A stretch of DNA of 64,000 nucleotides from Elusimicrobiota bacterium. GTDB taxonomy: Bacteria; Elusimicrobiota; Elusimicrobia; UBA1565. A model generated the notes under the pieces. That model did no database searches and was not told the DNA's origin. It saw only the letters and a program-made list of their open reading frames with translations. The stretch covers positions 8,255 to 72,254 of the forward strand of contig JACRDO010000016.1 in NCBI GenBank assembly GCA_016212885.1. The letters run 5' to 3'. Each line of letters begins with the position of its first letter. Within the stretch, counting starts at the first letter, position 1. Below, piece after piece: positions 12,357 to 33,300 of this stretch. The position numbers and the translations under genes were made by a program.

Positions 12357-12512
12357 GCGGCGGCAATAAATAACCCGTGCGACTATTTGCATGACTGTGG
12401 GCGACCACGGTTGGAGTAACATGTAGAGGTTGTTTATTGACGCGCACTTGGAGCCGAGTCTTAGAGGAGTCTGGAATGCGCAGGCGGGTTTTAGTAGACT
12501 CAGCCGGCTCTC

Positions 12513-13565: not shown

Positions 13566-13680
13566 GCCGGATTCTTCATTTGGCCCGAGATACGGCACGC
13601 TCGGGCGCACCAACGGCGCATGAAGGAAAGCTTCTGGGGAAAGAGCCGACGGCAATTTGTTCGGCGCCTTGGTGCGCCGG

Positions 13681-14099: not shown

Positions 14100-14981
14100 T
14101 CAGGCGCAGAGTATTTGGCGGGAGTTTGTGCGTAGAGGATAGAGGAATACATGCTTGACGGGAAGTGGGTTGTGATGATGTCGGTCTAGCTTGCCCCTAC
14201 CTTGAGTTTGTCCCACCAATAACCAATTGGCTGCCTTATAGCAGGTACCCGCAAAACGGGTATCCACGAAAGTCTCCAACAGGACCGGCGAATACCTGTA
14301 ACGCATTTGCCAATCTTGAGGCAATTGCTTGGCAACGCCTGCCAGAATGCGGGAGGCGAGATTGCGGGAAGTCACCCAAGGCAGGATGAGGAAGCGGGCG
14401 TTGTTGACGACGAGATGCAGGTTTCTAGCGCGTTGATCAGTGGTCCAACCCACGAAGTGATCGCGCGGCGCCACTTTCCAGGCGGCGGCGCCGAAGCCGA
14501 GAGCAGCCAAGAGATAGGTGTTGCTGAAAACCAAGTAGCGGATTTGCGCCCCGGGCAGCGGCTTGTAGCCCAAGTAATGATAGCGGTCGATCAATTCATT
14601 CCAAAGGGAGCCGTCTTTGGCCGTGGAGACGGGATGAAATTGCAGCGGGCCCAAGTCGCCAGCTGACATCGAAACAGGGAATTGAGGATCAGACGCAGAA
14701 GTCCAAGCAGGGCAGGTTCGACCGTTGCCGTTGCCCTTTTGTGGAGCAGGCAAACAGATCAGATCATCGCGATGCATGCGCAGCATCGCCACCCGGCAGG
14801 ACATTTCCTTGCGACGGCCGTCCGGCTTGATCCAACCAAGAGCGTCGCACACCGCGCGTGAAAGCGCGACGCGATTGTAAGACGGATGATCGACAATGAA
14901 GCGCCCAATCCAAAGGATCTCTTGCGAATTGAACAGGCGTCCGCAGTAGCGGCGCGAGGTTTCCGCCTCAGGGAGGGTCAT
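14100..14981 (-). CDS. DUF4338 (DruA-like) domain protein, IS passenger
   Basis: Motifs WNELIDRYHYLGYKPLPGAQIRYLV, NNARFLILPWV and AGTCYKAANW are typical of DUF4338. The ATG at 14981 forms an ATGA overlap with the transposase stop. The track start at 15110 would overlap the transposase by 133 nt. The stop lies only 11 nt from the IR. Confidence 0.8.
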   Translation of the reverse strand: MTLPEAETSRRYCGRLFNSQEILWIGRFIVDHPSYNRVALSRAVCDALGWIKPDGRRKEMSCRVAMLRMHRDDLICLPAPQKGNGNGRTCPAWTSASDPQFPVSMSAGDLGPLQFHPVSTAKDGSLWNELIDRYHYLGYKPLPGAQIRYLVFSNTYLLAALGFGAAAWKVAPRDHFVGWTTDQRARNLHLVVNNARFLILPWVTSRNLASRILAGVAKQLPQDWQMRYRYSPVLLETFVDTRFAGTCYKAANWLLVGQTQGRGKLDRHHHNPLPVKHVFLYPLRTNSRQILCA

Positions 14982-19201: not shown

Positions 19202-20272
19202 CTACTCGCGGGTGATGCTGAGGCGGGAGTGAGCGCGGTGGCGCCGAATGGCGAGCCGCAGGAGCCTGTCTACGAGCTTCGTGAAAGAAAGCCCTGAGGC
19301 GCCCCAGAGCTTGGGGAACATGCTGATTGCGGTGAATCCAGGCATCGTGTTGATCTCGTTGAACCAGAGCCTGCCCGTTTCTTTGTCCAGGAGGAAATCC
19401 ACTCGGGCGAGCCCGTAGCCTCCCAGGGCGCGGAACGCATCCACCGCCATCTTCCGGACCCTCTCAGCGGCGGCCCGCCCCAGCTCCGCCGGCGCCATGA
19501 GCTCCGCCCCGTCGGGCATGAGGTACTTCGCCGCGTAGGAGTAGAACTCCGCCTTGGGGCGGATCTCGCCTACGACCTTCGAGGCGCGGATGTCCTCGCC
19601 TCCGCCCAGCACCGCGCACTCGATCTCCCGCGCCGGCACCCCCTCTTCGACCAGCACGGTCGTGTCGAACCGGAAGGCCCGCCTAACCGCCTTGGCGAGG
19701 CCCTTGGGCTCCTGGACCTTGTAGACCCCGACCGAGGAGCCGAGCCGGCAAGGCTTCACAAAGACCGGGAAGCGCAGCTTGAGGGCCTCCTTGAGGGTCC
19801 AGCGGCCTTCGAGAACCGCGTAGGGCAGGACCGGCAGGCCGGCAACCTCGGCCAGGCGCTTGGTCATGACCTTGTCCATCCCAACGGCCGAGCCGAGGAC
19901 CCCGCAGCCCACGTAAGGCAGTCCCGCGACCTCCAGGAGCCCCTGCACGGTCCCGTCCTCCCCAAAGGGGCCGTGCAGGGCCGGGAAGACGGCGTCCGGC
20001 CTCAAGCGCCTGGCCCTGGACCCTGAGCCGACCACCAGGGCCGGCTCTGCGCCCAACTCGATGCGCGCAGGGATGCGGTCGAAAGGGTACTTGAACGGCT
20101 TCGGGTGCCGCGCGAAAGCCCGGGGCCTCCTCTGGAAATGCCAGCGGCCTTGGGCATCGATGCGCACCAAGAGCGGCCGGTGCGGCCCCAGGTTGCGCAC
20201 GATAGCCGCGGCTGAAACGCAGGAGACGTCGCGTTCAGCTGAACGGCCGCCGAAGAGCACCAGGACGTTCAA
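19202..20272 (-). CDS. ddl: D-alanine--D-alanine ligase
   Basis: 356 aa. VLFGGRSAERDVS, HGPFGEDGTVQGLLE, and an ATP-grasp region ending FNEINTMPGFT. Confidence 0.9.
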   Translation of the reverse strand: MNVLVLFGGRSAERDVSCVSAAAIVRNLGPHRPLLVRIDAQGRWHFQRRPRAFARHPKPFKYPFDRIPARIELGAEPALVVGSGSRARRLRPDAVFPALHGPFGEDGTVQGLLEVAGLPYVGCGVLGSAVGMDKVMTKRLAEVAGLPVLPYAVLEGRWTLKEALKLRFPVFVKPCRLGSSVGVYKVQEPKGLAKAVRRAFRFDTTVLVEEGVPAREIECAVLGGGEDIRASKVVGEIRPKAEFYSYAAKYLMPDGAELMAPAELGRAAAERVRKMAVDAFRALGGYGLARVDFLLDKETGRLWFNEINTMPGFTAISMFPKLWGASGLSFTKLVDRLLRLAIRRHRAHSRLSITRE

Positions 20273-20751
20273 TATACGCCCCGGGCCTGGTACCAGAACC
20301 TGCCGTCCATCGTCTTATGGATGCAGTCGACGAAGATGATGACCCGCTCGCTGTTGTGGACGTAGCCCCAGCCGCCCGAGTCCTTCAGCCGCGCGCCGTT
20401 GATCTGGCCGTCCACGATGATGTCGGGGGGGTAGTACCGGACCGCGCCGGAGTCCTTGTGGCCGGCTGCGCCCAGCTCGACTTCCGGGATCTCGGCGATG
20501 TACTTCGGTATCAGCTCGCTGAGCTTCTCCGGGATCCGGCCCTCCGCTTGGATGAAGTCGTTGAGGCTGCGCTCGATGGCGGAAAGGCGGGAGAACGTGT
20601 GGCTCTCGGAGGTCTGCCTCTCGGAACGCTGGATATCGCTGTTGATCTCCCTGGCCGCGGGGACGCCGGCGTCCCCTTTGCTCAGGCTCCAGGAGCAGCC
20701 GGAGGCGGCCAGGAACGCCGCGAGGAACGCCTGAGACGCAAAGTGTTTCAT
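20269..20751 (-). CDS. lipoprotein, unknown function (pseudopilin-G-like motif)
   Basis: 160 aa. Lipobox LAASGC. 4-nt overlaps with both neighbours (mnmA stop, ddl start). The internal GRIPEKLSELIPKYIAEIPE stretch resembles the GspG-type pseudopilin body. Confidence 0.55.
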   Translation of the reverse strand: MKHFASQAFLAAFLAASGCSWSLSKGDAGVPAAREINSDIQRSERQTSESHTFSRLSAIERSLNDFIQAEGRIPEKLSELIPKYIAEIPEVELGAAGHKDSGAVRYYPPDIIVDGQINGARLKDSGGWGYVHNSERVIIFVDCIHKTMDGRFWYQARGVY

Positions 20752-21836
20752 AACACCTCCTCGATGGTCCCGCCCCCGAGGACCTCGTCGAAACCTTCCG
20801 AACGGCGATAGAAGACGGCCGCCTGCCCGGGGGCGATGCCCATTTCGCCCTCCTGCAGGACGACCCGGAACCGGCCGCCCAAACCTTCCGAACGGAGGGC
20901 CGCGGGGGCCAGACGGCCGCGGTGGCGGACCCGGACCAAGACATCCCCCTGCGTCGGTTCATTCCTCGTCCAGGAAAGGCTTCCAACCGTGAAAGCCGAA
21001 CGCCGCGTCTCTCTTTCGGTTCCGACCACGAGGGTGTTCGTGGCCCCGTCCAGGCGGGAGACGTAGAGCGGCTCGGGCGCCGCGACTCCCAGCCCCTTGC
21101 GCTGGCCCACCGTGTAGCAGGCGAGGCCCTCGTGCCGGCCGAGCAGCTTTCCGGATCTGTCCCGGATGTCTCCGGGTGCGAACGCCGCCGGCGCCTCCCG
21201 AAGGGCGCGCAGGCGCAGAAATTGCCGGTAGTCGTTCTTTGGGACGAAGCAAATCTCCATGCTCTCAGGCTTGTCCGCGGTTGCAAGCCCCAGGGCCCGG
21301 GCCTTCCGGCGCGCCTCGTCCTTCGAGAGCCGGCCCAGCGGGAAGATCGTCCGCGCAAGCTCCCTCTGCGTCAGGCAGTATAGAAAATAGGACTGGTCTT
21401 TGCGCTCATCAGCTGCGCGGAAAAGCCCGCATGTCCCGTCTTCCCTGCGCTCGACGCGGGCATAGTGGCCGGTCGCGACCGCATCGGCCTTCCAGTCCAC
21501 GGCCAGCTTGAGCAGCGCGGCGAACTTGACCTTCCGGTTGCACTCCACGCAGGGGTTCGGCGTGCGCCGGCTCAGGTAGTCCGAAACGAAAGGATCGATG
21601 ACAACTGCCGAGAAGAGGTCGCTGAAGTCCATGAGGCGGTGGGGGATGCCGAGCTTTTCCGCCGCCTGCCGGGCGTCCGCGGCGTCCGGGGAGGCGCCGC
21701 AGCAGCCGCGGCCCGGCCACGCCGCGGGGCGGAGCTTGAAGGTCACCCCCATCGTCTCCCAGCCGTCCTCGACGCACAGCGCGGCCGCAACGGAGGAGTC
21801 CACCCCTCCGCTCATGGCGACGATGACCCGCGCCAT
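20748..21836 (-). CDS. mnmA: tRNA 2-thiouridine(34) synthase MnmA
   Basis: 362 aa. PP-loop VAMSGGVDSSV, PNPCVECNRKVKF and GHYAR. Confidence 0.9.
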   Translation of the reverse strand: MARVIVAMSGGVDSSVAAALCVEDGWETMGVTFKLRPAAWPGRGCCGASPDAADARQAAEKLGIPHRLMDFSDLFSAVVIDPFVSDYLSRRTPNPCVECNRKVKFAALLKLAVDWKADAVATGHYARVERREDGTCGLFRAADERKDQSYFLYCLTQRELARTIFPLGRLSKDEARRKARALGLATADKPESMEICFVPKNDYRQFLRLRALREAPAAFAPGDIRDRSGKLLGRHEGLACYTVGQRKGLGVAAPEPLYVSRLDGATNTLVVGTERETRRSAFTVGSLSWTRNEPTQGDVLVRVRHRGRLAPAALRSEGLGGRFRVVLQEGEMGIAPGQAAVFYRRSEGFDEVLGGGTIEEVL

Positions 21837-22522
21837 TAGGGTTTGGTGCCGAAGAAGCCGTTGAGCAGGTCTTCATCCGGCTTGGCGGCCGGCTGGGCCG
21901 CCTCGGGGGGCTTCGCTCCGGGGAGCTCTTTCTGCTTGGGCGCCCGGGTCCCCGTGACCGGAAGGACGATGGCTTTTCGGACGCCCTCGGCGAAGATGAG
22001 CATGCCCTCTTTCTGGTCGAAATAGAGCCGGAAGGGAGACTCCTTGAGCTGGGGAGCATAGGCCTTGCCGAGGTTGTCGCGCTCCTGCTCCCATTGGGGA
22101 TTGTAGATCAGCTTCCCCCGCACATCGACCTTGCCCTTGAGGATCGGCAGGCTGAAGCGGATCCGGTAGACGCCGTTGGTGTCGCTGACCCCCGCGTCGA
22201 AAGAGGAGGTCTGGAAGGCCGCCTGACTCTTCTCGACGAATTTCTCCTCTCCCTCGGCGACGGCGCGCACCACCACGCCCTGGATGGGGTTGTCTTCGAG
22301 GTCCGTGATGACGCCGACGATGTAGCCCTCCAGGAAATTCGACTTCCTGTCGACCGACACAAACAGGTAGTCCACGGCCCCGGTGAGCCGGTCCACGATG
22401 ACCACCTGGGCCACGCGGCCCTCCGCGAAGTCCTTGAGCACGACCTTCTTGCCGCCCCTCCCCGTGCTCGCGGCGGCGCAGCCGCAGAAGAGGCCGGCCG
22501 AAAGGAGCAGCGCGGCTCTCAT
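21836..22522 (-). CDS. lipoprotein with carboxypeptidase-regulatory-like beta-sandwich, translationally coupled to motB
   Basis: The ATG at 22522 forms an ATGA overlap with the motB stop. MRAALLLSAGLFCGC lipobox. GVITDLEDNPIQGVVVRAV...TNGVYRI resembles CarboxypepD_reg. The track start at 22690 is an upstream out-of-frame extension. Confidence 0.65.
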   Translation of the reverse strand: MRAALLLSAGLFCGCAAASTGRGGKKVVLKDFAEGRVAQVVIVDRLTGAVDYLFVSVDRKSNFLEGYIVGVITDLEDNPIQGVVVRAVAEGEEKFVEKSQAAFQTSSFDAGVSDTNGVYRIRFSLPILKGKVDVRGKLIYNPQWEQERDNLGKAYAPQLKESPFRLYFDQKEGMLIFAEGVRKAIVLPVTGTRAPKQKELPGAKPPEAAQPAAKPDEDLLNGFFGTKP

Positions 22523-23262
22523 GGCGTCCCTCCCGCCGGCGGCGCCGCAGGGGCCGCGCCTTGGGCGGGCGCCTTGACGCCCTCCCCGGGGCCCGCGCTG
22601 GAGGCGGGGGCCGCGCCGGGAGAGGGCGGAGCGCCGTGCGGCGTGACCGTCTTGACGAAGAAGACCACGCGCCGGTTCTTGGCCTTGCACTCGGGGGTGT
22701 CGTTGGCCGGGCAGACCGGGCGATACTGCCCGTAGCCCATGGCCGCCAGGTACTGCGGCGAGAAGTCCTTATCCTTGATGAGGTACTCCACGACGGTCGT
22801 GGCCCGCGCGGAGGAGAGCTCCCAGTTCGAGCCGAAGTACTCGTCGTTGATCGGGACGTTGTCCGTGTGGCCTTCGACCACGATGTCGAAATTCTTCGAA
22901 AGGTTCTTGATCGTCGGAGCGATCTGATCCAGGATCGAGAGCATCCCGGCTGTGACATCGGCCTTGCCGCTCGCGAAGAAAGCCATGTCCCCCTTCTCCT
23001 GGATGCTGATCTTCATGCCTTCCCGGTCGATCTTCACGTCGATCTCGGCGTGGATGTTCTTCTTCGCCTCCTCGACGTCCTTCACCGCCTGCTGGACGTC
23101 CTTGTTCAAGACGGCCGAAAGGGCGTAGAGGATGACGAAGAAGCAGACCATCTCCGTCATGAGGTCCGCGTAGTTGACGAGCCAGGGCGGGGCCGGGTGG
23201 CCGATCTGGCAGACCTTGGGGTCGCTCTCGTCGATGAAGCCCTTGGGGGCGCGCAGGGGCAT
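22519..23262 (-). CDS. motB: flagellar-type stator protein MotB (OmpA-like peptidoglycan-binding)
   Basis: 247 aa. TM segment with the proton-binding Asp (WLVNYADLMTEMVCFFVILYAL). OmpA_C-like region (EGHTDNVP...NWELSSARA...NRRVVFFV). Confidence 0.8.
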   Translation of the reverse strand: MPLRAPKGFIDESDPKVCQIGHPAPPWLVNYADLMTEMVCFFVILYALSAVLNKDVQQAVKDVEEAKKNIHAEIDVKIDREGMKISIQEKGDMAFFASGKADVTAGMLSILDQIAPTIKNLSKNFDIVVEGHTDNVPINDEYFGSNWELSSARATTVVEYLIKDKDFSPQYLAAMGYGQYRPVCPANDTPECKAKNRRVVFFVKTVTPHGAPPSPGAAPASSAGPGEGVKAPAQGAAPAAPPAGGTP

Positions 23263-23265
23263 GGG

Positions 23266-24078
23266 CTATTTCCTCTCCTCTTCCTGCCCCTTCTTCTCCT
23301 CTTCGTGCCCCTTCACCATGACCCGCTGGGAGGGCTCGAGGTAGGCCTTGAGGTTCGCCTCCACCACGCGAGGGGTCGCTCCGCTCTGGAGCAGGAGCAC
23401 GCCGCGGATGACGATCTCCTTGACGAGCAGCTCCTCCTCCGAGCGCCTGCGGAGCTTGCCGCCCATCGGCAGGAAGATGAGGTAGCCGGACCCGAGCCCG
23501 TAGAATGCGGCGGCCAAGGCCAGCGCCATCCGTTTGGGCACCGCCTGGACGTCGCTGATCGAGTTGAGCATCAGCACCATGCCGAGGACCGTCCCGATGA
23601 TGCCGAAGGCCGGGGCGTAGGTGCCCATGGAGTTGAAGATCTCCATCCCGATCTTGTGGCGCTCCCGGATGAAGCCGATCTCCGTCTCGAGCATGTTGCG
23701 GATGAACTCCTGGTCCGAGCCGTCGATGACGTGCTGGATGCCGCGCTTGAGGAAGTCGTCCTTGATGGCGTTTACGTCGGCCTGCAGGGCCAGGAACCCG
23801 TCGCGCTTGGCCTTGTGCGCGAGCGAGACGAAGGTCGCCACGAGGCCGGAAGTGTCCTCGCCGCTCTGGGTGAGGACCTTCCGCAGGATCCTGCCCAGGC
23901 CCACCACCTGTTTGAGCGGGTAGTTGACCAGCGTGGAGCAGAAGGTGCCGCCCATGACCAGCAGGAGGGCCTCAATGTTCGCGAAGGGCACGAAGCCCGC
24001 CGGTCCCTCTTGATAGAGGATGGCGGCCACCGCCAGGCCGATGAACACCAGGATGCCCATTACGGTGGCTATGTCCAT
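23266..24078 (-). CDS. motA: flagellar-type stator protein MotA (MotA/TolQ/ExbB channel family)
   Basis: 270 aa. Four-TM layout, a cytoplasmic loop KAKRDGFLALQ, and the C-terminal channel region GTYAPAFGIIGTVLGMV...AFYGLGSGYLIFLP. Confidence 0.85.
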   Translation of the reverse strand: MDIATVMGILVFIGLAVAAILYQEGPAGFVPFANIEALLLVMGGTFCSTLVNYPLKQVVGLGRILRKVLTQSGEDTSGLVATFVSLAHKAKRDGFLALQADVNAIKDDFLKRGIQHVIDGSDQEFIRNMLETEIGFIRERHKIGMEIFNSMGTYAPAFGIIGTVLGMVLMLNSISDVQAVPKRMALALAAAFYGLGSGYLIFLPMGGKLRRRSEEELLVKEIVIRGVLLLQSGATPRVVEANLKAYLEPSQRVMVKGHEEEKKGQEEERK

Positions 24079-24106
24079 AATCGTTCCTTATAATGACAAG
24101 TCAGGC

Positions 24107-24331
24107 TCACTCTCTTTTGTAGCCTTCTATGGGATTTCTCACGGGCCTTTCGGCGTTGACCCGCTTGCGGTACTCTATCACCTTTCCCACGACCTCGTCC
24201 ACAGTCTCCTTGACGAGGTAGCGGTTGTTGGTGGCCAGCGAGATGACGGTGTTGGGGCACGCCTCTACCGCCTCGATGAGCTCTGCGTTGATCGTGATCT
24301 CCTGGCCGTTGAGGCGCGTAACCTTGATCAT
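24107..24331 (-). CDS. flbD: flagellar protein FlbD
   Basis: 74 aa. MIKVTRLNGQEITINAELIE...NTVISLATNNRYLVKETVDEV is the FlbD signature. It lies immediately upstream of motA, as in spirochaete/Firmicute-type operons. Confidence 0.8.
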   Translation of the reverse strand: MIKVTRLNGQEITINAELIEAVEACPNTVISLATNNRYLVKETVDEVVGKVIEYRKRVNAERPVRNPIEGYKRE

Positions 24332-26112
24332 GCCTTCTCCTCCGGCCCCACCCTGCGCCCCAGGGCGCTGATGCGGGACTTGAGCCTCTCGATCTCCTCG
24401 GCGCTCCTCTTCTGCTGGAGCTCGTAGGCGGCCCGGAGCTTGTTCCAGTTCTCCCGTTCGGCGCTGAGCGCGGCGAAGCGCCGCTCCTCAGCCGCGGCCT
24501 GTGCCAGGGCCCCGCCTACGGCGCCTTCGAGCTGGCTGAGCCTCTCGCGCAGGGCCGCGGCCGTCTTCTCCTGCTCGGCCCGATCCCGGGCAGCGGCGGC
24601 TTTCCATTCCTCCTCCACCGCGAGGCGCGAGCGCAGCTCTTCATACTCCTGCCGGAGCCGCTCAAGCTCCTGGGCCCGCTTGCGGGCCTCCTCCTCCGCG
24701 GCCCTGCGGGCCTCCTCCAAGCGGCGCAGCTCCTGCCGGCCGCCTTCGATGGACGCGGCGAGGCGCTTTATGAGTTCCTCCTCCAGGCTTGCGCGCACAA
24801 GCCGCATCTGCTCGGCCTGCTCGCGCCGGCAGTCGGCCCGGACAACCTGCGCGGCGGCGAGGAGCCGGCTCTGCAGCTGCTCCTGCGCGCAGGCCTTGAT
24901 GCGCGCCTTCTCGGCTGCGAAGCGCTTCTCGGCGTCCGCCGCCGTCTTGGCGCGGATCTCGGCTTCCCGGTCCTGCCACTTGCGCTGCAGGACGATGAAC
25001 TCGGCCTGGTACTTCTCGTTGATCCTCTGCATCTCATCCTTGGCCTTCTTCGCCTCGTCGGCCTGCGCGCGCAGGGCGGCACTCTGCTTCTCGAGCGCGC
25101 CTCCCACGGCCCGCATCCTCTGCAGGGCTGCGCCCGCGAGCTCCGCCTGGGCGCGCGTCTTCTTCAGCTCGGCCTCGTGCTCGACGTTCAGGCGCCGGAT
25201 TTCCTCCTCGCGCTCGGCCGCCAGGCGGCTCGCGACGCTCATCAGCTCGCCCTGCAGCCTCTCGTTGTCGGCCAGAAGCCGCTCCTCGCGCTCCCGCGAG
25301 CCCGTCCTGAGCGAGTGCAGCTCCCGCTCGAGCCGCTCCTGCGCGGCCCGAAGCCGCTCCTGCGTCATCGCGAGCTCGGCTTTGACCTGGGTGAGCTCCC
25401 GTTCGCGCTCGGCCGATGCGGCCGCCTGCGCTTGAAGCCGGCCGTTGGCCTCGGCGAGCTGCGCGGCGCGCTCCTCGACGGCCTGCTTCTCCAGGAGCGC
25501 CTTGCGATGCTCCAGGTCGATCCCCTTGAGGCTTTCAGCCAAGGCCTTGGCCTGGCGGCTCTCGTCTTCCTTGGCGCGGATGAGCCGCTGCCAGTGGGCC
25601 TTCTCCTCGAGCCAGCGCCGCTCGATGTCCTGCAGGCGCAGGGAGAACTGCGCCTCGACCTCCCGGTCCCTCGCGTCGCGGATCTGCAGCTTCTGCTGGA
25701 GGGTCCCAAGCAGGGTCTCGCGCTCCTGGACTAAGCGCTCCTCGAGCTCCCGGACGCGGGCTTCGAGCTTGAGCTTCGTCTCCTCCATCTCCGCCTCGCG
25801 CCGCTCCCGGCGCAGCTTGTCCTGCACATCCTTGATGGAGAGCTCGACGCGGCCGGCGATTTCGGCCTCCTCCTTGGCCTTCAGGCTTGCGAGTAGGACC
25901 TTCTCCCGCTCCTCCATCAGGCGCTTCTCGAGCAGGGCGATCTTCCTTTGCTGGTCTAAAGTCGGCGCCGCGGAGCCCGGCGCGGGCGGCGCGCTTGGAA
26001 GCGCCGTCCTCTCCGGCGCTTGCGGTTCTCCGCTCGCCGGAGAGGGCCTAACCAGGGTGTACGCGCCCGGAGGCAATGGAGGACTAGGATTGCGCCTGGA
26101 TTCCTCAGCCAT
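24328..26112 (-). CDS. 594-aa coiled-coil protein with Pro-rich N-terminus, unknown function
   Basis: After about 55 Pro/Ala-rich residues it is almost continuous E/R/A/L/Q heptad-like sequence. A 4-nt overlap joins it to flbD. It sits where fliH/fliJ lie in flagellar operons. Confidence 0.7.
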   Translation of the reverse strand: MAEESRRNPSPPLPPGAYTLVRPSPASGEPQAPERTALPSAPPAPGSAAPTLDQQRKIALLEKRLMEEREKVLLASLKAKEEAEIAGRVELSIKDVQDKLRRERREAEMEETKLKLEARVRELEERLVQERETLLGTLQQKLQIRDARDREVEAQFSLRLQDIERRWLEEKAHWQRLIRAKEDESRQAKALAESLKGIDLEHRKALLEKQAVEERAAQLAEANGRLQAQAAASAERERELTQVKAELAMTQERLRAAQERLERELHSLRTGSREREERLLADNERLQGELMSVASRLAAEREEEIRRLNVEHEAELKKTRAQAELAGAALQRMRAVGGALEKQSAALRAQADEAKKAKDEMQRINEKYQAEFIVLQRKWQDREAEIRAKTAADAEKRFAAEKARIKACAQEQLQSRLLAAAQVVRADCRREQAEQMRLVRASLEEELIKRLAASIEGGRQELRRLEEARRAAEEEARKRAQELERLRQEYEELRSRLAVEEEWKAAAARDRAEQEKTAAALRERLSQLEGAVGGALAQAAAEERRFAALSAERENWNKLRAAYELQQKRSAEEIERLKSRISALGRRVGPEEKA

Positions 26113-26137
26113 GGTGTCTCCTCATGATCGAACCTTC

Positions 26138-28123
26138 CTAGGTCGCGGGACTCTCCTTCATTTGCGCCTTATAGCTGTCCAGCCAAGACCTCAGGCTCGG
26201 GTCCGGATTGTAGGAAAGGGCCTTCTCATAGTACATCAGGGCCTCGGGGATGCGGCCCATCTGGAAAAGCTCGGACCCGAGGTATTGGCAGGCCTGCCAG
26301 AGGTCCGGATCGTGCTCGATGGCCTGGCGGAAGCACCGGACCGCCTCGTCGAGGTTGCCGGCCTCGTGCTGCTCGAGGCCCGCGTCGAAGCAGCGGCGGG
26401 CCTCGGCGGCATCGATCCGCGCCGTCTCCTCGGACTTGCTCGGCGCAGCCGGCTCGGCCGCAGATTCCTCCTTGCGGCCCGCCGGACGGCGGGACGACGT
26501 CGCAAGGACGTCTTGGAAGCCCTCGTCCTCAACCTTCGGCCGCACCGCGACCTTGCCGTCCTTCTCCATGGCCTTGATCTTGTCCAGGATCTTCGTGCGC
26601 TCGTCCTCGGCTTGCGCCGGCGTGACGCCCTGGGAGTACTCCATGGACTCCTTGAGCAGAGAACCGGCGCCCTCCGACATGTTGGCGAAGAACTTGCTGG
26701 CCACGTCCGGCGGCGCTCCCATCAGCGCGCGGGCCATATCGTCCGGCTGGAGCTCCCGGATGATGGTCTGCATGTCGCGGTCCGGGAAGTTCGCGATATC
26801 CTCGAAGAGCAGGACCCTCTTGCGGACGCGCTCGTAGACGGCGGGTTTCTCGTTCTTCAGGTATTCCAGGATGTTCGCCCGCGTCGGCGTATCGGCTTCT
26901 TCCAGCATCTGCGTCAGGCGCTCTATGCCGCCGACCAAGAAATTAACGCTCTCCTTGATGTCGGAATCGATGGCCGCCACCTGCTCGCGCGTGCACTGGC
27001 GGACCATCAAGGCCTCCATCGCCACCTTGGCCTGCATCCCGACCGGCAAGGCCATGAGAACCTGCCGGGCGTACTCGGGCCGGAGATAGCTCAGAACGAC
27101 CGCGATGAGCCACGGCTCCTCGCGGCGAAGCAGGAACAAAATGACCAGGCGCTTGAGGTTCGTCTCGTTGATGTAGGAGAACCATTGCGACATATCTTCC
27201 TCCTCGGAAGCCGGCGGCTTCTGGCCGAACATGACATCCAGCTTCCCCTCCCCCGGCCCTCCCGCTCCTCCCGCTCCTCCCGCGCCGCCTTTGCCTTCCC
27301 CCTCCGGAGGCTCGATGTTCGACTCCACGTTGATCTGGGCGGCGGGCTTCTGGGCGATGGCCTCCACGTACCTGCGCATGAAGCCCGCGAACGGGAAGAA
27401 AAGGAATAGGAGCAGGAGAAGCAGGAGGGCCGCGTAGAGCAGGGGCAGGTAGACTTTGGGCTCCTTGAGGTCGTCCATCCAGTTCTTGTCCGCGGCCGCG
27501 GAGGACTGATGGTACTTCATCTTCTTGAAGGCGACGTCGTCGGGCACGAGCTTGGCGGCGCCGCCGGCGTCCTTGTACTTGGCCATGGCCTCGACGATGA
27601 AATCCCGAACGTCCTTGATCTTTTTGTCGTCCACCCGGCTGTCGTGGAAGACCGTCACCTTGAGCTTCCTGAACACCAGGTCCTGGGCGTAGTACTCCTC
27701 CTGCTCGGACTTCGTCTGCGACGCGGACTGCCCCACAGCCGCCTCGGGCCTGGGCTTGGCGGTGATGTTGGTGATGTTCTTGGGAGTCGGGACCCCCGGC
27801 AGGGCCCATTCTCTCCCCATCCCCTGCCCCTTCTCGCCCTTCTCTTTGTACTTCTCGGCGATGCCGGCGCCTTCCTTGGCGTTTTCGCGGCGCTGGGCTT
27901 TGACCTCGATCTCCACGTCGGCGAAGACCGTTCCCTTGTCCTTGCCGAGCATGGGGTCGAGGATGTCCTTCTGGATTCGCGCCTCCGCGTCCTTGATGAT
28001 GTTCTCGCGCCACTCGATGAGGGTCAGCTTGGGGGTCTCCAGGACATCCAGGGATGCGCCGCGGCGCGCCGGAGCGGCAAGGGCGAGCGCGGCCAGCGCG
28101 GATATAACAAGTCTTTTTGTCAT
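26138..28123 (-). CDS. mini-FliF / FliG(middle+C-terminal) / TPR fusion protein (rotor-like)
   Basis: 661 aa.
- Signal/TM1.
- A periplasmic region of about 200 aa with ring-building-like beta strands (GTVFADVEIEV, FRKLKVTVFHD).
- TM2 (aa 224-248).
- A Gly-rich linker.
- FliG_M-like REEPWLIAVVLSYLRPEYARQVLMALP.
- FliG_C-like VLLFEDIANFPDRDMQTIIREL...FFANMSEGAGSLLKESME...ILDKIKAMEKDGKV.
- C-terminal TPRs (LDEAVRCFRQAIEHDPD, ALMYYEKALSYNPD). Confidence 0.75.
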   Translation of the reverse strand: MTKRLVISALAALALAAPARRGASLDVLETPKLTLIEWRENIIKDAEARIQKDILDPMLGKDKGTVFADVEIEVKAQRRENAKEGAGIAEKYKEKGEKGQGMGREWALPGVPTPKNITNITAKPRPEAAVGQSASQTKSEQEEYYAQDLVFRKLKVTVFHDSRVDDKKIKDVRDFIVEAMAKYKDAGGAAKLVPDDVAFKKMKYHQSSAAADKNWMDDLKEPKVYLPLLYAALLLLLLLFLFFPFAGFMRRYVEAIAQKPAAQINVESNIEPPEGEGKGGAGGAGGAGGPGEGKLDVMFGQKPPASEEEDMSQWFSYINETNLKRLVILFLLRREEPWLIAVVLSYLRPEYARQVLMALPVGMQAKVAMEALMVRQCTREQVAAIDSDIKESVNFLVGGIERLTQMLEEADTPTRANILEYLKNEKPAVYERVRKRVLLFEDIANFPDRDMQTIIRELQPDDMARALMGAPPDVASKFFANMSEGAGSLLKESMEYSQGVTPAQAEDERTKILDKIKAMEKDGKVAVRPKVEDEGFQDVLATSSRRPAGRKEESAAEPAAPSKSEETARIDAAEARRCFDAGLEQHEAGNLDEAVRCFRQAIEHDPDLWQACQYLGSELFQMGRIPEALMYYEKALSYNPDPSLRSWLDSYKAQMKESPAT

Positions 28124-28133
28124 GCGCGACTAA

Positions 28134-28162
28134 AGTGTAAAGCTAATATGTTACGTTTTCAA
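28134..28162 (-). promoter_or_regulatory. putative sigma70 promoter of the rotor-stator cassette
   Basis: The minus strand reads TTGAAA (28157-28162), a 17-nt spacer, then TACACT (28134-28139), in the only AT-rich pocket upstream of the ATG at 28123. The -10 ends only 10 nt before the ATG, so the mRNA would be nearly leaderless. Confidence 0.3.
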
Positions 28163-28166
28163 TACA

Positions 28167-28252
28167 AGCCGCCGAGACGGGCGAAGCCCGTCGAGTGCTC
28201 TTTTGGAAACATGAGACAGAAGCTGAGGCGGCATATGGGAGCCTTCTCGACG
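28167..28252 (+). repeat. intergenic repeat A, copy 1 (GC hairpin + TTTTGGAAACATGAGACAGAAGCTGAGGCGG tail)
   Basis: About 86 nt, identical to 28300-28385 except for one base. Hairpin GACGGGC-GAA-GCCCGTC at 28176-28192. Confidence 0.85.
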
Positions 28253-28299
28253 GAATGTTTCCAAAATACCCGCGATTCGCTGCGCTCATCGCGGGGGAC
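28251..28299 (-). repeat. intergenic repeat B, copy 1 (hairpin CCCGCGAT/ATCGCGGG + TATTTTGGAAACAT on the minus strand)
   Basis: 49 nt, identical to 28450-28498. Confidence 0.85.
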
Positions 28300-28385
28300 A
28301 GCCGCCGAGACGGGCGCAGCCCGTCGAGTGCTCTTTTGGAAACATGAGACAGAAGCTGAGGCGGCATATGGGAGCCTTCTCGACG
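28300..28385 (+). repeat. intergenic repeat A, copy 2
   Basis: See copy 1. There is a single A/C difference in the hairpin loop region. Confidence 0.85.
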
Positions 28386-28451
28386 TCCCAAACATCAAAG
28401 ATACGTTCGTTTGGGACGTCCCGAACCTAAGCCGTTTGGGTGTTCGGGACG
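28384..28451. repeat. twin 10-bp-stem hairpins sharing a central GGGACGTCCC
   Basis: CGTCCCAAAC (28384-28393) pairs with GTTTGGGACG (28409-28418). CGTCCCGAAC (28417-28426) pairs with GTTCGGGACG (28442-28451). Each has a 15-nt loop. Same motif family as 3540-3737. Confidence 0.75.
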
Positions 28452-28458
28452 GAATGTT

Positions 28459-28494
28459 TCCAAAATACCCGCGATTCGCTGCGCTCATCGCGGG
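28459..28494 (-). terminator. rho-independent-type terminator of the PorV-like gene (repeat B, copy 2)
   Basis: 8-bp GC stem (28468-28475 with 28487-28494) and an 11-nt loop, starting 3 nt after the TAG at 28498-28500. On the minus strand it is followed by TATTTTGG. Confidence 0.6.
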
Positions 28495-28497
28495 GGA

Positions 28498-30084
28498 CTA
28501 GAGCCGCTTGAGGAACTCGGCGACGACCTTGTCGGTCGGGTCGATCTCCAGGACACGCTTCCAGACGGCCTTGGCCTTGGCCTTCTCCTCCATCATGAAG
28601 AAGGCCGAGCCCATGATCTCCAAGGCCGTGATGTTGTTCGGCTCCAGATCGAGGACGTCCTGGGTCCGGCGGATGGCGAGGTCGTACTTGCCGTCGTAGA
28701 TGGCCTGGCGGGCGTCGTAGAGCTTCTGGTCCACAAAGGTGAACTGCTCGGGGCCCTCGACGCGGCGCGTCATCTCGCTCACGCCGGCCTCCTTCTCCAC
28801 CAGGTTCAAGAGCCCCAGGACATTCTCCTCTTTGGAATTCTTGTTGTAGGCGTAGCGCAGGGCGTTGACCGAGCCGCGCAGGTCCCGGCCATCCACGTAG
28901 GATATGACGCCCTTGCGCACGTAGGTCTGGAACTCCTCCCCGCCCAGGGCCTGGGGGACGCGGCTGACGATGATCTGGAGCCGGCTGACCATCGCCTTGA
29001 CCTGCTTGTTGTTCGGGGAGGCGTCGAGGGCCTGGTTGAGGCGCAGCGCCGCGAGCTGGAAGTCCCCCTCCTTGAAGGCTTCATAGCCCTGCTCGATGAG
29101 CAGCTTCACCTGGCCGGCCGAGCGGTCCTCGCGCGAGCGGCCGAAGCGGTACCCCACCGAGACGCGCATGCTGGCCGGGTTATCGCTGATCCCGAGCACG
29201 TGGATCCCCTCCGCGATGTCGAGCTGGAGGCGCTGGAAGCGGAAGCCGATGCCGAAATCCGTCTCCTGTATCTCCGGCGCCGCCAGGACTCCGAACCGGA
29301 AGGCGAACCACCGCGCGACCCAATACTCGCCGCCGAAGCGCCAGTTGATCTCGGCTGCCTGGGATTTCGCGATATCCATGCCCAGCAGCAGGCGCTCCTT
29401 GAAGAGGCGCAGGCTGTTGCCGATCTTTATGACGACCGGGTACTTGTCGTCCGTGTCGCCGCTCGTCATGCTGAACACGTTCTGCATCCCGACCGCAAGC
29501 CGGTAGTAGGGGCCTATGATCCGCATGACCGCGACGTCCAGGGCGTTGGTGCTGTCCGTGGAGGCGTCGAGCTGGCGGGTGACCCGCTTGAGCGAGATGC
29601 CGAACGCCGTGGTCTCCGTCGCCTCCTTGCCCCAGGAGAGGATATGGGCGCTCTGCTGGTCGCTGAATGAGTTATTCAGCGATTTGTTGAACTCGTCGAC
29701 CTTCTCGAAGCCCTTGGATGTGAGCATCGTCATTCCATATGCGAAGGTGCCTGCCATGGCCGTCGGGTGGGCGTAACCCAAGCAGTTCAGTGTGGTCTGC
29801 TCCCACAGCATCGCCGACATAAACGAGGCTTCCTTGCGCTGAAGGTAGGCTAAGCCCGCAGGGTTCCAGTACGCGGCCGTCGCGTCGTCGGCGATGGCGT
29901 AGAAGGCCCCGCCCATGCCGAGGGCTCGGGCCCCGACTCCATATTGGAGGAACTGGCCCGGCTGGCCGCCCGACTCGCCCTGGGCGAAGCGCGGGAGCGC
30001 CATTATGAAAACAAAAAGCCCGCAAGCGGCGGCGCGCGCCGCCCCCATGGGCTTGCCTGCGACTGCGTATCTATCGGCCTTCAT
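28498..30084 (-). CDS. PorV/PorQ-like outer-membrane beta-barrel protein fused to C-terminal TPR repeats
   Basis: 528 aa. Signal peptide (…GLFVFIMALPRFAQG). The hallmark GARALGMGGAFYAIADDATAAYWNPAGLAYL is that of the PorV/PorQ/UPF0164-type barrels, followed by alternating beta-strand sequence. The last 200 aa or so are TPR (FQLAALRLNQALDASPNN, YDLAIRRTQDVLDLEPNN, AVWKRVLEIDPTD). The start could instead be the Met at 30048. Confidence 0.75.
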   Translation of the reverse strand: MKADRYAVAGKPMGAARAAACGLFVFIMALPRFAQGESGGQPGQFLQYGVGARALGMGGAFYAIADDATAAYWNPAGLAYLQRKEASFMSAMLWEQTTLNCLGYAHPTAMAGTFAYGMTMLTSKGFEKVDEFNKSLNNSFSDQQSAHILSWGKEATETTAFGISLKRVTRQLDASTDSTNALDVAVMRIIGPYYRLAVGMQNVFSMTSGDTDDKYPVVIKIGNSLRLFKERLLLGMDIAKSQAAEINWRFGGEYWVARWFAFRFGVLAAPEIQETDFGIGFRFQRLQLDIAEGIHVLGISDNPASMRVSVGYRFGRSREDRSAGQVKLLIEQGYEAFKEGDFQLAALRLNQALDASPNNKQVKAMVSRLQIIVSRVPQALGGEEFQTYVRKGVISYVDGRDLRGSVNALRYAYNKNSKEENVLGLLNLVEKEAGVSEMTRRVEGPEQFTFVDQKLYDARQAIYDGKYDLAIRRTQDVLDLEPNNITALEIMGSAFFMMEEKAKAKAVWKRVLEIDPTDKVVAEFLKRL

Positions 30085-30246
30085 GTTCGGCAGCCTGACC
30101 TCCCCGCCGCGGCGGGAATCTTGGCTTTGCGCCCCCGGCTTGCGCCGGGTTTGCCGTTATCGCCCGATGAACGGAACGCTCTCGGCGCGCGTCATCACAG
30201 CCCCGGTCCAGCGCGCCGCATCCGACATCGGGATCCTGCTATTCCA

Positions 30247-30275
30247 ATTATAACAGGCGCATCTTGACTTGTCAA
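30247..30275 (-). promoter_or_regulatory. perfect-consensus sigma70 promoter upstream of the PorV-like gene
   Basis: The minus strand reads TTGACA (30270-30275), exactly 17 nt, then TATAAT (30247-30252). This predicts a 5' UTR of about 155 nt before the ATG at 30084. Confidence 0.6.
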
Positions 30276-30298: not shown

Positions 30299-30362
30299 CC
30301 CGCCTCAGCTTCTGCCTCATGTTTCCAAAAGACCCGCGATTCGCTGCGCTCATCGCGGGGGG
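30299..30362 (-). repeat. chimeric repeat: B-type hairpin joined to A-type tail
   Basis: The minus strand reads CCCGCGAT-loop-ATCGCGGG, then TCTTTTGGAAACATGAGGCAGAAGCTGAGGCGG. The hairpin is identical to repeat B. The tail matches repeat A with 2 mismatches. Confidence 0.8.
30323..30359 (-). terminator. rho-independent-type terminator of the giant gene
   Basis: Stem 30333-30340 with 30352-30359, starting 3 nt after the TAG at 30363-30365, followed on the minus strand by TCTTTTGG. Confidence 0.6.
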
Positions 30363-33300
30363 CTAATGTATAACCCCGATCTTCCTGATCGCGGTCTTGG
30401 AGCCGGCCTTGATGCGCGCGATGTAGCCGCCCTTCGACACCAGGCGGCCCATCCCGTTGCGGCCGTCCCACGGGACTTCGTTCTTGCCGACCCTGCCGCC
30501 AGGCGTCCCCTTAGGGCATGATATCGAGCGGACCACGTAGCCGAGCAGGTCGTAGATCGTGATGGTCACGTCGGAGTCCTCGCCGAGGACGTAGACGATC
30601 TTGGTCCCGCCGCTGCGTGAATCGAAGGGGTTGGGGTAGTTCGACACCTGGGTGATGCCCGGTTCCGGCAACGTCATCACCGAGATCGACTCAGTTTCAG
30701 CGGACCACGAGGAAGCGACGCCCGCGTAGTTGAACGCCCGCACGCGGTAGCTGAGCAACTGGCCCGACTGGCGCGGCTGCTCGGCCGGGTTGCTTGCCGG
30801 GTTGCCGACGTGGTAGGCGTTGTTGGCCACCCCGCCGGTCTTCACGGCCGTGATCGCGCCGAGGGAATGCCAGACCGGGTCGGTGCCGCTCAGCTCCTGG
30901 ATCTCGTAGAGCATCACGTTGGATTCGTCGTCGCGCGAGGCGTTCCAGGTCACGACGAAGCTCGCGCCGGAGGCCTGCCCCGGCGGCACCAGCGACCGCA
31001 CCGCGGCCGGAGAGGTGGGCGGCGTGGTGTCGATCCGGTAGATGATGAGGGGCCGGCCGGACTCCGACGGGATGTAGCCTGTCGGCGCGCTGACGGGGCC
31101 CGTAAAGGCGCGCACCGAGACGAGGGCCATGCCGTCCGAGACGAGCTCTCCGGCCAGGTGCTGCTGCGGCAGTGTGCCCAAGCACCCGCGGCCGGTGGCG
31201 CCCGGGCACCCGATCTGGCCCGGCAGGACCTGGAACTCCGTGTTGCTCACGCGCAGCGCGCCCACGATCTCCGAGCCGATGACGAGCTTGCCCTGGTTGA
31301 AGAAAATCGAGGTATCCTCGACCTTGATCGAAGCGTCGCTCGGCCCGAAGGGCTGCGCCAGGCGGGTGATCTTCGGCACCGGCAGGGCCAGGCCGGTCAG
31401 GGTCCCCGAGGTCACCGAGCCGACGTTCCTCCAGCCGAAGGTGAAGGACTCGTACTTCTCGAAGCTCTCCCCCACCGCGATCTGATAGCCCGTTATGCCC
31501 TGCGTGGAGGAGGGGATCGGCCACGAAAGCCCGAGGCTCGTGCTGTTCGAGTTCCAAGCGGACATCGCCAGGCCCTGGTCCGAGATCGGCATGGCTTTGC
31601 CGTCCTTGTCAACGATGAAGTACACCGGGTTGCCCTTGCCGTCGTCGACCACCTTGTCCGGGATGTTGTCGTTATTGATGTCCAAATCCAGCAGGCCGTC
31701 GCCGTCCACGTCCACCGAGGGCTTGTCCGAGCCGATGAGGCTGATGAACTGCCGGCGCCCGGTGTTCAGGAAGTCGAAGTTGTCCGGCGAGCCGTCATTG
31801 TTGATGTCCACGAGCGGCTCATTCACCGCGGGCTGGCCCGGCGCCGCGGCCAAGGCGGAGGCGCCCGAGGACTTCCACGGCTTGCCGTCCTTGCCGATCC
31901 ACTTCAACGAGTCGCAGACCGGGCGGCCGGTTTCCGTGGAAATCTTGACGCGGCCGGCTCCATCGCGCTTGACGATGCAGGGGTAGCCGAAGCACGGCGA
32001 GCCGGAGCCCTTGCAGGGATGGGTTCCGTCTTCGCCGACGTCCGCGATGGTGATGGTCGGCAGGATCGAGGAGAGCGGGATGATCGCCGTCGAGATGCGC
32101 ACCAGGCTCGATCGGGCCGGGAACTGCTTCTCGTTGGATGAATGGGAGGCCGCGGTCAGCTCGGAGGAGTTGGGCCCGAACATGTCCTCGAAGCGCTCGA
32201 TCGAGAAGCCGATCTGGTCCCCGATCGTGGCGCGGCCCGCCAGGTCCACCGTCGAGACGTCGCAGGCGAAGAAGACGTTGACCGGCGTCGTCGTCACCAT
32301 GAGGAAGGGGACGCTGGAGACGCTCAGGTCCACGAGGGCGGTCCCGCCGCTGAACTGCCCAGAACCGCCCGGGAAGCCGAAGTGCGTCAGGGCGCCGATC
32401 AGCTTGTCGCTGTTGGGCGTGAAGGCGCTGTCCCCGTTGTCAAGCCAGACGCTCAAAGATCGGGCGTCGCCCTGCCCGACGGCCGTGACCGGATACCTCT
32501 CCTGGACCGTGCCCAATTGGGTCAGCTTGAGCTGGGCGATGCGCACGAAGTCCGAGTTGACGCTCATCGTCACCTGCCCCAGCGCCACGTTGGTCTGGCC
32601 GCCCATCGCAGCGGAGGGCGCGAGGTTGCGCGACTCGAACCTCAGCGTCAGCGGGGTGATGTGGACCTTCGAGCCCCTGAACGGGAACTCGCCGGTCATA
32701 GTCCCCCTGGCCTGGAGCTTCGAGACGTTCAGGCGGATGCCGGGGGAAACGTCCTTGGGCGCGAGGACCCCGACCCAGGACTTGTCGATGATATCGACGG
32801 AGAGCTCGTCGTTCTTGACGGCCGTGGCGCCGACGTCGTAAGTCAGGAAGAAGACGCCGGCCGTCGGCGAGATCGTCTGCTGGACCGAGAGCTCGACGAC
32901 CAGCTGGAGGTCCTGGTCGTTGAGCTGGTTGAAGACGTCCACCTTGCGCACGCCCGCGCCGGCCGCGTGGGCGAGCGTGGGCGTGGGCCCGCCGCCCAGG
33001 ACGTCGCCGCGCGATAAGATCGCCAGGGTCGGGTAGAGCGCGCCGCCGATCTGCGTCGTGCCGTAGCCGCCGCCGAAGGTCATCAGCTCGGTGTTCCCCA
33101 CGTAGATGCGGCCCTGGCCGTTTACGGGGAATCCCAGCGTGGAAGCGACGACCAGTGTGAAGGGCGCCGTCTGGTTGGAGGAGACGGCGCCGTAGGGGGG
33201 CAGGGTGGAGCCGGAGATGACCAGGGTGTTCGCCTCCGAGACGTTGAGGTCGTTCTCGTCTAAGACGTCGTTCTGGTTGATATCCTTCCAGAGGCGCACG

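Follow-up and report, generated by a model that had tools for sequence, protein, structure and literature searches.

The rotor and stator of the bacterial flagellum form the textbook rotary motor, and to our knowledge this pair is known only within the flagellum. The closest described relative of the gene cluster examined here is the flagellar motor core, made of FliF, FliG, MotA5B2 and FlbD and encoded in the flgB-type operons of spirochaetes and Clostridia. In the present study, we analysed a stretch of 64,000 nucleotides (nt) from an Elusimicrobiota bacterium (contig JACRDO010000016.1; the whole stretch is called the window below), in which homologous parts stand in the same order. As in the flagellar motor, the stator has a plug, a channel Asp, two prolines and a peptidoglycan (PG) anchor, and the rotor has the FliG_M/FliG_C fold. 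Unlike in the flagellar motor, FliF is cut down to a domain resembling the ring-building motif RBM3 and a transmembrane (TM) segment, fused to FliG and followed by an added C-terminal TPR domain, and the partners are new: a PorV-like barrel, a lipoprotein and a coiled-coil protein. The ion-driven rotor and stator probably descend from the flagellar motor, but both their architecture and their context are new. We propose that it works as a non-flagellar, ion-driven rotary machine of the cell envelope, built from the flagellar torque core, regulated by a cyclic dinucleotide and probably serving surface proteins with a C-terminal sorting domain (CTD), and we put the probability of this reading at roughly 0.5.

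Several other systems are comparable in part. [quoted passage not shown] ExbBD-TonB, TolQR-TolA, AglRQS-Glt of Myxococcus and ZorAB also use a stator-type channel to energise a non-flagellar process of the envelope, with Tol/Exb-type A subunits that push a TonB/TolA/GltG-like rod or tail, and have neither a FliG rotor nor a flagellar MotA with FlbD. Reduced flagellar systems, such as the basal bodies of Buchnera or the orphan flagellar genes found in Chlamydia and Lysobacter, have kept the basal body or export apparatus and lost the motor. These are again subsets of flagellar genes kept by organisms that do not swim, and the cluster described here keeps the opposite half, with the motor retained and the export apparatus gone. 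A preprint on magnetotactic Elusimicrobiota has reported that only few genomes of the phylum hold a complete flagellar set and that most free-living members have no structural flagellar genes, yet carry motAB, flbD and fliG, whose role it calls "unclear" and "enigmatic". The bare observation has therefore been made there in passing; we found no description in the literature of this architecture or context, nor of a type IX link in Elusimicrobiota. The features of the cluster and its surroundings are as follows, in the direction of transcription.

30363-63974, minus strand: giant surface protein of 11,203 amino acids (aa), T9SS type A sorting domain at its C-terminus
30247-30275, minus strand: sigma-70-type promoter, TTGACA-17-TATAAT with extended TG, 12/12 consensus
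30085-30164, minus strand: riboswitch aptamer of the GEMM-I / c-di-GMP-I clan (Rfam RF03167), in the 5' leader of the PorV-like gene
28498-30084, minus strand: PorV/PorQ-family (FadL-like) outer-membrane barrel with C-terminal TPR domain (NCBIfam PorV_fam; Pfam UPF0164 and TPRs)
28244-28498, no strand assigned: local terminator-like repeats, two copies (56-nt and 86-nt units); third copy at 30308-30363
28134-28162, minus strand: weak promoter-like site before the rotor gene, 9/12 consensus, a pattern match only
26138-28123, minus strand: rotor protein, 661 aa; Pfam FliG_C 87.6 bits, FliG_M 42.6 bits, C-terminal TPRs
24328-26112, minus strand: coiled-coil protein, 594 aa; no Pfam or NCBIfam family
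24107-24331, minus strand: FlbD (SwrD family), small stator-associated protein; Pfam FlbD 87.6 bits
23266-24078, minus strand: MotA, flagellar-type stator A subunit; MotA_ExbB 98.5 bits
22519-23262, minus strand: MotB, stator B subunit; MotB_plug 47.7 bits, OmpA 56.5 bits; Asp of YADLMT
21836-22522, minus strand: lipoprotein, 228 aa; lipobox, then the motif KKVVL.DFAEGRV...
20748-21836, minus strand: mnmA, 381 bits

All open reading frames (ORFs) of the cluster lie on the minus strand; those named in the initial annotation have the coordinates given there, and their assignments to families hold. The elements follow each other in the order promoter, riboswitch, PorV-like gene, rotor, coiled coil, FlbD, MotA, MotB and lipoprotein. 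From the rotor gene through mnmA they are separated by gaps of 25, 28 and 3 nt or overlap by 4, 4 and 1 nt, which agrees with the tight packing (4-nt overlaps, gaps of 28 nt or less) claimed for them before. The unit had been described as a rotor, a stator and three accessory genes only; this needs correction, since it also takes in the riboswitch and the PorV/PorQ-family barrel and begins further upstream, with the promoter, riboswitch and PorV-like gene (28498-30275). The giant CTD-bearing protein that adjoins the cluster had not been mentioned. The riboswitch, the PorV/PorQ barrel and the frequent giant neighbour with a T9SS CTD together point to a specific use of the cluster.

The rotor protein consists of a signal or anchor helix, a periplasmic RBM3-like domain (residues ~34-201), a TM segment (222-258), a disordered linker, FliG M and C domains (~320-527) and a TPR domain (572-657). 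Its best PDB match outside the TPR part is FliG_MC of T. maritima, both by sequence (E 3e-32) and by fold (Foldseek E 1.3e-12 with an AlphaFold2 model, pLDDT 74), so that the assignment of the C-terminal half to FliG is solid at the level of sequence and predicted structure. The N-terminal domain of about 170 aa is modelled by AlphaFold2 as alpha-beta-[disordered insert]-beta-alpha-beta, the pattern seen in the ring-building motif RBM3 of FliF, into which a collar is inserted. When the model of this domain alone was searched with Foldseek, the top 13 matches were all RBM3 of FliF from the MS-ring, at weak E values of 0.014-0.1; its sequence profile retrieved nothing meaningful from the sequences in PDB. 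In divergent relatives of the same architecture, Pfam YscJ_FliF_C matches with 33-37 bits against a cut-off of 23.8 and spans the whole profile at residues ~50-200, and the N-terminal domains of these relatives align with that of the family in the window over 214 columns (hhalign probability 99.6%, E 6e-25). We accept the FliF link because of the Foldseek ranking, the Pfam matches in the divergent relatives and the transitivity between the profiles. The label "FliF/FliG-like" given to this gene is therefore accepted, the FliG part by PDB and Pfam matches and the N-terminal part as FliF-related (RBM3).

A full-length FliF, with RBM1-RBM2-RBM3 and two TM helices, was not found in the rotor: a single RBM-like domain of ~170 aa precedes the TM segment. 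FliG_N is also absent, as only residues 121-323 of E. coli FliG (M and C) align. In place of two proteins, FliF and FliG, there is a single fusion polypeptide, which has no need of the FliF_C-FliG_N joint. We accept, from sequence and models, that the rotor is best described as FliF(RBM3+TM2)-FliG(M,C)-TPR, in which a covalent link would stand in for the co-folding joint of FliF_C and FliG_N. Residue states, here and below, are given in the numbering of the RefSeq E. coli proteins and were read from alignments of 66-80 family members. The FliM-binding motif EHPQ is replaced by [E/D][E/D]PW, with the Trp present in 80/80 sequences and EEPW in the window copy; the Arg of EHPQR is off its aligned position, and an invariant Arg (R375) is found 2-5 residues away. 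Judged from these alignments, the FliG features that plug into the flagellar C-ring and MS-ring are gone from the rotor.

The other half of the motor is of flagellar type. Among the NCBIfam models, MotA matches flagellar MotP, MotA and PomA best, in PDB flagellar MotA and PomA rank first (C. sporogenes, 173 bits), and no match to ExbB, TolQ, GldL or ZorA was obtained in the NCBIfam, PDB and PADLOC searches. MotB likewise has flagellar MotB and PomB as its best PDB matches. Both components of the 5:2 motor superfamily are present, namely an A subunit of the MotA_ExbB family and a B subunit with a single TM segment and a conserved Asp. The equivalent of the channel Asp D32 of MotB is invariant in the 66/66 readable sequences, and those of the MotA channel prolines P173 and P222 are invariant in 68/68. 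The earlier claim that MotB keeps the channel Asp (YADLMT) and an OmpA-like PG anchor is borne out by this invariant Asp and by the plug and OmpA matches in Pfam. The stator looks fully competent, as far as alignments can tell, with all the tested residues for ion flow and anchoring intact.

In E. coli, the main pairs of residues between rotor and stator are R90 with D288/D289 and E98 with R281. In the family, the equivalent of MotA R90 is Lys in 68/68 sequences and that of E98 is Gln in 54, Glu in 13 and Asp in one (n=68). On the FliG side, the position of D288 is Glu in 80/80 and that of R281 is Gly in 79/80, and those of D289, K264 and R297 are not conserved. One pair thus survives, R90/D288 in the form of Lys/Glu, and the other is largely neutralised on both sides, leaving the rotor with a plausible but reduced contact with the stator. 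A strict co-loss of the E98/R281 pair was considered and rejected, since MotA has Glu or Asp in 14/68 sequences while FliG has Gly in 79/80.

The arrangement is conserved across the phylum. More than 300 full-length homologues of the 661-aa rotor, with 45-73% identity, were found, and the named ones come nearly all from metagenome-assembled genomes of Elusimicrobia/Elusimicrobiota; a second search with a low-GC member of the family as query gave 433 further clusters, and no cultured species was among the matches listed in either search. Relatives are encoded in 153 stretches of contigs from GTDB genomes, taken as one genome per species, and the best 80 of the 153 stretches are labelled Elusimicrobia/-ota (75), Endomicrobium (1) and "bacterium" (4). 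The cluster is also present in complete or near-complete genomes, namely CP096137.1, CBDIQC010000001.1 and GCA_016194745.1. Synteny was compared, by tblastn and mapping of ORFs, in about 85 Elusimicrobiota loci from at least 80 species-level genomes. The order riboswitch, PorV-like gene, rotor, coiled coil, FlbD, MotA and MotB is constant in every locus that is long enough. The median gaps between the successive genes from the PorV-like gene to MotB are 75, 24, -4, 16 and 7 nt. In 81 loci the rotor gene is immediately preceded by the PorV-like gene, the coiled-coil protein is present in 80 and FlbD in 76, and MotA is the most conserved member (69-87% identity over full-length loci). A comparison of synteny in relatives had been proposed as a check of the initial annotation, and the same order was found in all related loci of sufficient length. 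Because this order recurs in every such locus, the arrangement is not due to chance; the cluster is a maintained, selected unit and not a decaying remnant.

The wider family reaches further. An exhaustive search with the FliG_MC segment gave 4,967 representatives at E ≤0.001, and most of the ~100 best have a common layout of 450-750 aa with an N-terminal signal-like helix, a TM segment at ~170-240 and FliG_MC at ~280-510. Canonical FliGs of ~335 aa first turn up at about 120 bits and 35% identity, and therefore the diversity of the fusion architecture appears much greater than that of the close Elusimicrobiota set. We also observed hundreds of distant proteins (P0244-P0385) of 450-750 aa with a signal helix, a TM segment and FliG_MC, many of them from low-GC hosts. 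The fusion proteins may not be confined to the named Elusimicrobiota. In L088, which is the most divergent of the loci examined, motAB does not adjoin the rotor gene, and downstream of the rotor gene, past an ORF of 830 aa, stands a Roadblock/LC7 (MglB-like) gene.

The two remaining proteins of the minus-strand unit have no known family. The coiled-coil protein is made up to 74% of A, E, R, L, Q and K, with a single proline past residue 60, and consists of a Pro-rich N-terminus, a conserved block of ~170 aa and a coiled coil of variable length. In 80 loci its length is mostly 425-999 aa and the N-terminal block is conserved. No signal peptide or TM segment was predicted, which places it in the cytoplasm. 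Its identification as FliH was rejected, as neither FliH nor any other family matched in Pfam, NCBIfam or PADLOC. In most loci, the gene after MotB encodes a protein that has a lipobox and the motif KKVV.EDFAEGRVVDL; the lipoprotein had no match in Pfam, NCBIfam, PADLOC or PDB, and in the window its start is likely MRAALLL...GC rather than the upstream GTG. In relatives, a cysteine desulfurase gene stands between the lipoprotein gene and mnmA, and this gene is missing from the window. A second, putative lipoprotein of 160 aa follows mnmA (20269-20751, minus strand); it is syntenic in ~38 related loci, where ddl often comes next (19202-20272, minus strand, in the window).

At the other end of the unit, the PorV-like protein of 528 aa matches NCBIfam PorV_fam NF033709 with 93.3 bits against a cut-off of 90, and its sole PDB match outside the TPR part is the weak one to F. 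johnsoniae PorV (6h3i_F, E 0.034). Translation probably begins at its second Met, at 30048. The TPR domain should be periplasmic, provided that the barrel is FadL-like. The giant protein upstream ends in a match to TIGR04183 Por_Secre_tail (26.9 bits, cut-off 23). Its match to PorU covers the shared CTD only, and the rest of the protein gives faint Pfam matches only, to Ig-like, filamin and FlgD_ig domains. With 11,203 aa it is among the largest bacterial proteins. The ORF as delimited has no recognisable N-terminal signal peptide and starts 26 nt from the end of the window, so that the actual 5' end may be in another frame or beyond the window. Of the 58 loci with enough upstream DNA, 23 have a homologue of the final 1,000 residues upstream of the PorV-like gene; it ends 150-550 nt upstream in 21 loci and at 1.2 and 2.1 kb in two more. 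The gene calls give 12,492 aa and 11,884 aa for the homologues in L003 and L005. The giant CTD protein is a candidate client of the cluster.

The riboswitch stands at the head of the unit. The aptamer of 80 nt in the window scores 58.2 bits with RF03167 (E 4e-13) against a gathering score of 59, and the copy of a divergent lineage in L087 scores 69.5 bits, above the Rfam threshold. In 76/76 loci with enough upstream DNA an aptamer lies 5' of the PorV-like gene, and with a covariance model made from 66 copies every locus shows a single copy, apart from L088, which has two. Under the Rfam structure, 97.2% of the cells are paired, compared with 44% at most when the partners are slid; changes on both sides are seen in 16/23 pairs, and the observed values are reached in 0/500 shuffles. 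In its two-hairpin fold with a GNRA loop, its covariation and its location in a 5' leader, the element agrees with GEMM-I. The fold and the type of regulated function, motility or surface, are also those of the GEMM-I riboswitches Vc2 of V. cholerae and Cd1 before the flgB operon of C. difficile; the differences are that the best Rfam model here is the GGC variant and that one subgroup has A instead of G at the position that distinguishes members sensing cGAMP from those sensing c-di-GMP. The "GGC variant" label is probably an artefact of the best-scoring model, as all 66 aligned riboswitches carry A where the "GGC" consensus of RF03167 has G. GCAAAG does not vary among the sequences, and the window copy has G at its position 12. 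Two flavours were observed at the corresponding column 13 of our alignment A3, a window type with G and an Elusimicrobiales type with A (L062:8048-8130, L079:8030-8112). This column is presumably the equivalent of G20 in the Vc2 riboswitch. A change of G20 to A converts c-di-GMP-I riboswitches to the sensing of cGAMP. For the copy in the window, we infer cyclic di-GMP (c-di-GMP) as the ligand. The two copies in L088 lie at 5483-5570 (minus strand) and 7378-7464 (plus strand); one of the two precedes a response regulator, a TPR protein and the rotor operon, and the other a CTD-bearing protease (subtilase) and PorV pair.

A sigma-70 promoter lies ~83 nt upstream of the riboswitch, and a promoter scan of the 10-kb region found two promoter-like sites against 0.6 expected from shuffles. 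The terminator-like repeat is present in three copies in the window, which flank the PorV-like gene (0 expected by chance; folding z-score -5.5). The copies lie at 28244-28299, 28443-28498 and 30308-30363, the last just past the giant gene, with 86-nt units at 28167-28252 and 28300-28385; in each, read on the minus strand, a U-run comes after the GC-rich hairpin CCCGCGAT...ATCGCGGG. The repeat may be a small mobile element or a duplicated terminator. The two copies at 28244-28498 widen the gap between the PorV-like gene and the rotor gene to 374 nt, against a median of 75 nt in relatives, most of which have 100 nt or less. Co-transcription of the two genes is likely in general and uncertain in the window, because of the terminator-like repeats and the weak promoter-like site before the rotor gene.

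No rod, hook, FliM/N or export gene is present in the 64-kb window. When 23 flagellar and chemotaxis proteins of E. coli were compared by tblastn with the window and 88 loci (1.52 Mb), only FliG, MotA, MotB and one CheY-like match were obtained, and the Pfam-annotated gene calls of seven loci contain no flagellar neighbour. The statement that type III export, rod, hook and FliM/N are missing thus holds for the window and for the 1.52 Mb around the clusters; genes for the export ATPase and the filament are likewise absent there. MotA has 32-34% identity to MotA of Clostridium, Bacillus and Paenibacillus and to PomA of Vibrio, which have 33-39% among themselves, and MotB shows the same pattern. 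By similarity, the stator sits among the orthodox flagellar stators, which fits descent from a flagellar motor. MotA resembles the stators of Firmicutes and Vibrio as closely as they resemble one another, which makes a reductive descent from a flagellum plausible. The initial annotation had proposed a skeletonised operon kept as a torque- or proton motive force-transducing device for a non-flagellar purpose. This interpretation is supported in part: the intact-looking stator, the lack of flagellar neighbours, the loss of FliG_N, the change of EHPQ to EEPW and the report of the preprint speak for its second half, and the skeletonised descent is plausible.

How such a machine might work can be outlined. 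The fusion protein would assemble through its RBM into a ring in the inner membrane that displays FliG_C, and PG-anchored MotA5B2 units, together with FlbD, would turn this ring via the retained Lys(R90)-Glu(D288) contact. The TPR domain of the rotor in the cytoplasm and the coiled-coil protein may replace the missing C-ring or tether the machine. The work could cross the periplasm via the ring's conserved insertion with the sequence AEKYKEK...LPG[IV]PKPK, the lipoprotein and the TPR domain of the barrel, and the riboswitch would set the expression in response to c-di-GMP. The output may be the export, anchoring or movement of CTD surface proteins such as the adjacent one of 11,203 aa. The flagellar rotor and stator would then play the role that GldLM/PorLM have in type IX secretion and gliding of Bacteroidota. 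Among the proteins of the cluster no match to the GldL/GldM or GldK/GldN families was obtained in Pfam and NCBIfam, and MotA and MotB are the only motor genes; no GldK/N, SprA or PorU gene was seen in the loci or the window. The most specific form of our proposal, in which a one-protein FliF-FliG rotor with MotAB/FlbD under the riboswitch replaces GldLM in a type IX-like export or propulsion of giant CTD adhesins, is tentative and we hold it to be possible rather than probable. Secretion or anchoring on the one hand and propulsion of adhesins on the other cannot be separated on the present evidence.

Several points weigh against a rotary envelope machine of this kind. The rotor in the window has no Pfam FliF match at E <0.01, and hhalign against E. 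coli FliF gives a probability of 40% over the last helix and strand of RBM3 only, so that the FliF link of this particular protein is transitive, with weak direct evidence. Four of the five charged residues of E. coli FliG that face MotA are not conserved, and because of this the contact between rotor and stator may work differently or not at all. The ring, its rotation and the output of the machine are all matters that we infer. The ligand of the riboswitch is predicted from conserved nucleotides, the regulation may be of either sign, and in the window the terminator-like repeats sit between the riboswitch and PorV-like gene on one side and the rotor genes on the other. PorV/PorQ-family barrels occur outside type IX secretion too, and Pfam UPF0164, which the barrel matches, is presumably a Treponema family. 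In 35/58 loci no giant gene lies beside the cluster, and metabolic genes precede the promoter there. Flagellar genes may also be present elsewhere in this genome, of which 64 kb were covered.

The rest of the window is mainly of a housekeeping nature, with genes for PdxA, SurA, Mfd, HemC, PBP1A and Ddl. At 14100-16651 (minus strand), a DruA-like gene (Pfam PF14236, 163 bits) adjoins a transposase of the IS66 family in a stretch of lower G+C (0.57 against ~0.66); this stretch is probably a mobile insertion, perhaps related to defence. Long ORFs without a family, at 10848-13655 (minus strand) and 2540-3847 (plus strand), overlap well-supported genes on the opposite strand (a radical SAM/B12-binding gene, SurA and Mfd) and are probably spurious products of the high G+C.

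Among the other explanations, the cluster could energise the maintenance of the envelope in the manner of Tol-Pal or Ton (tethering, constriction or lipid homeostasis), without any relation to adhesins or motility. It is very widespread in the phylum (153 species-level genomes and hundreds of protein clusters), it has conserved synteny with mnmA, ddl and PBP1A, MotB has a PG-binding domain, TPR proteins are typical partners of Tol and JGI names some homologues "TolA-binding protein", and most loci have no adjacent giant gene. Against this, MotA and MotB are of the flagellar and not the TolQR/ExbBD type, the FliG torque domain implies a rotor, which neither Tol nor Ton has, no TolA, TolB or TonB-like gene is found in the cluster, the partner in the outer membrane belongs to the PorV/PorQ family, and riboswitches for cyclic dinucleotides typically govern surface and motility genes, not housekeeping ones; we regard a Tol-like role as rather unlikely. 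A strict engine of gliding or surface motility, in which the rotor drives adhesins as proposed for Flavobacterium SprB and has no role in secretion, shares all the evidence of the envelope machine that we favour. The Ig-repeat-like giant CTD neighbour, comparable with SprB, and the Roadblock/LC7 (MglB-like) gene near the rotor gene of L088 would suit it, and the preprint speculates on gliding in these bacteria. Motility is unobserved in any organism that bears the cluster, and the loci showed neither a track nor a gene resembling GldJ/K/N, which leaves an exclusive role in gliding improbable as well.

The genes might also be a fragment of an ordinary flagellar system that powers a real flagellum, with the remaining genes elsewhere. 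Its MotA and MotB are as similar to orthodox stators as these are to each other, the gene order resembles the flagellar operons of spirochaetes and Firmicutes, and a few Elusimicrobiota do have complete flagellar sets according to the preprint. This explanation has to contend with the absence of FliG_N, by which FliG docks onto FliF and in place of which RBM3 of FliF and a TM segment are covalently attached, with the changed EHPQ motif, with the PorV-like barrel and the lipoprotein as conserved partners and with the lack of any other flagellar gene within 10 kb in about 85 loci; the preprint, moreover, found most free-living Elusimicrobiota with these genes to have no structural flagellar genes. 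We consider it very unlikely. Hardly any credence can be given to a Zorya-like or other module of defence or signalling that uses the MotAB-type channel as a sensor. MotB has generic ZorB matches in PADLOC of at most 67.6 bits, and a DruA-like gene is present elsewhere in the window, but PADLOC gave no ZorA match for MotA and no ZorC/D or other defence partner. MotA, with 270 aa, is flagellar-type, and the cluster is syntenic and core in the phylum and not patchy. We rejected Zorya and other defence systems as identifications, as generic ZorB for MotB was all that PADLOC returned, with nothing for MotA or the neighbours.

If the proposal of a non-flagellar rotary machine is true, the core that generates torque would be a module that can be detached from the flagellum and put to new use in evolution. 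The cluster would offer a minimal natural system for the engagement of MotAB with FliG, with one rotor protein in place of FliF, FliG, FliM and FliN. In the most specific form of the proposal, with GldLM replaced, it would represent an independent route to the transport of surface proteins, or to gliding, powered by the proton motive force, and flagellar torque would for the first time be seen to arise where both a type III export apparatus and an axial structure are lacking. It bears on models of the origin and decay of flagella and would extend type IX-like surface biology past Bacteroidota. For the orphan motAB, flbD and fliG genes that the preprint called enigmatic, it provides a concrete hypothesis, which bears on how uncultured Elusimicrobiota, the magnetotactic ones included, may attach or move.

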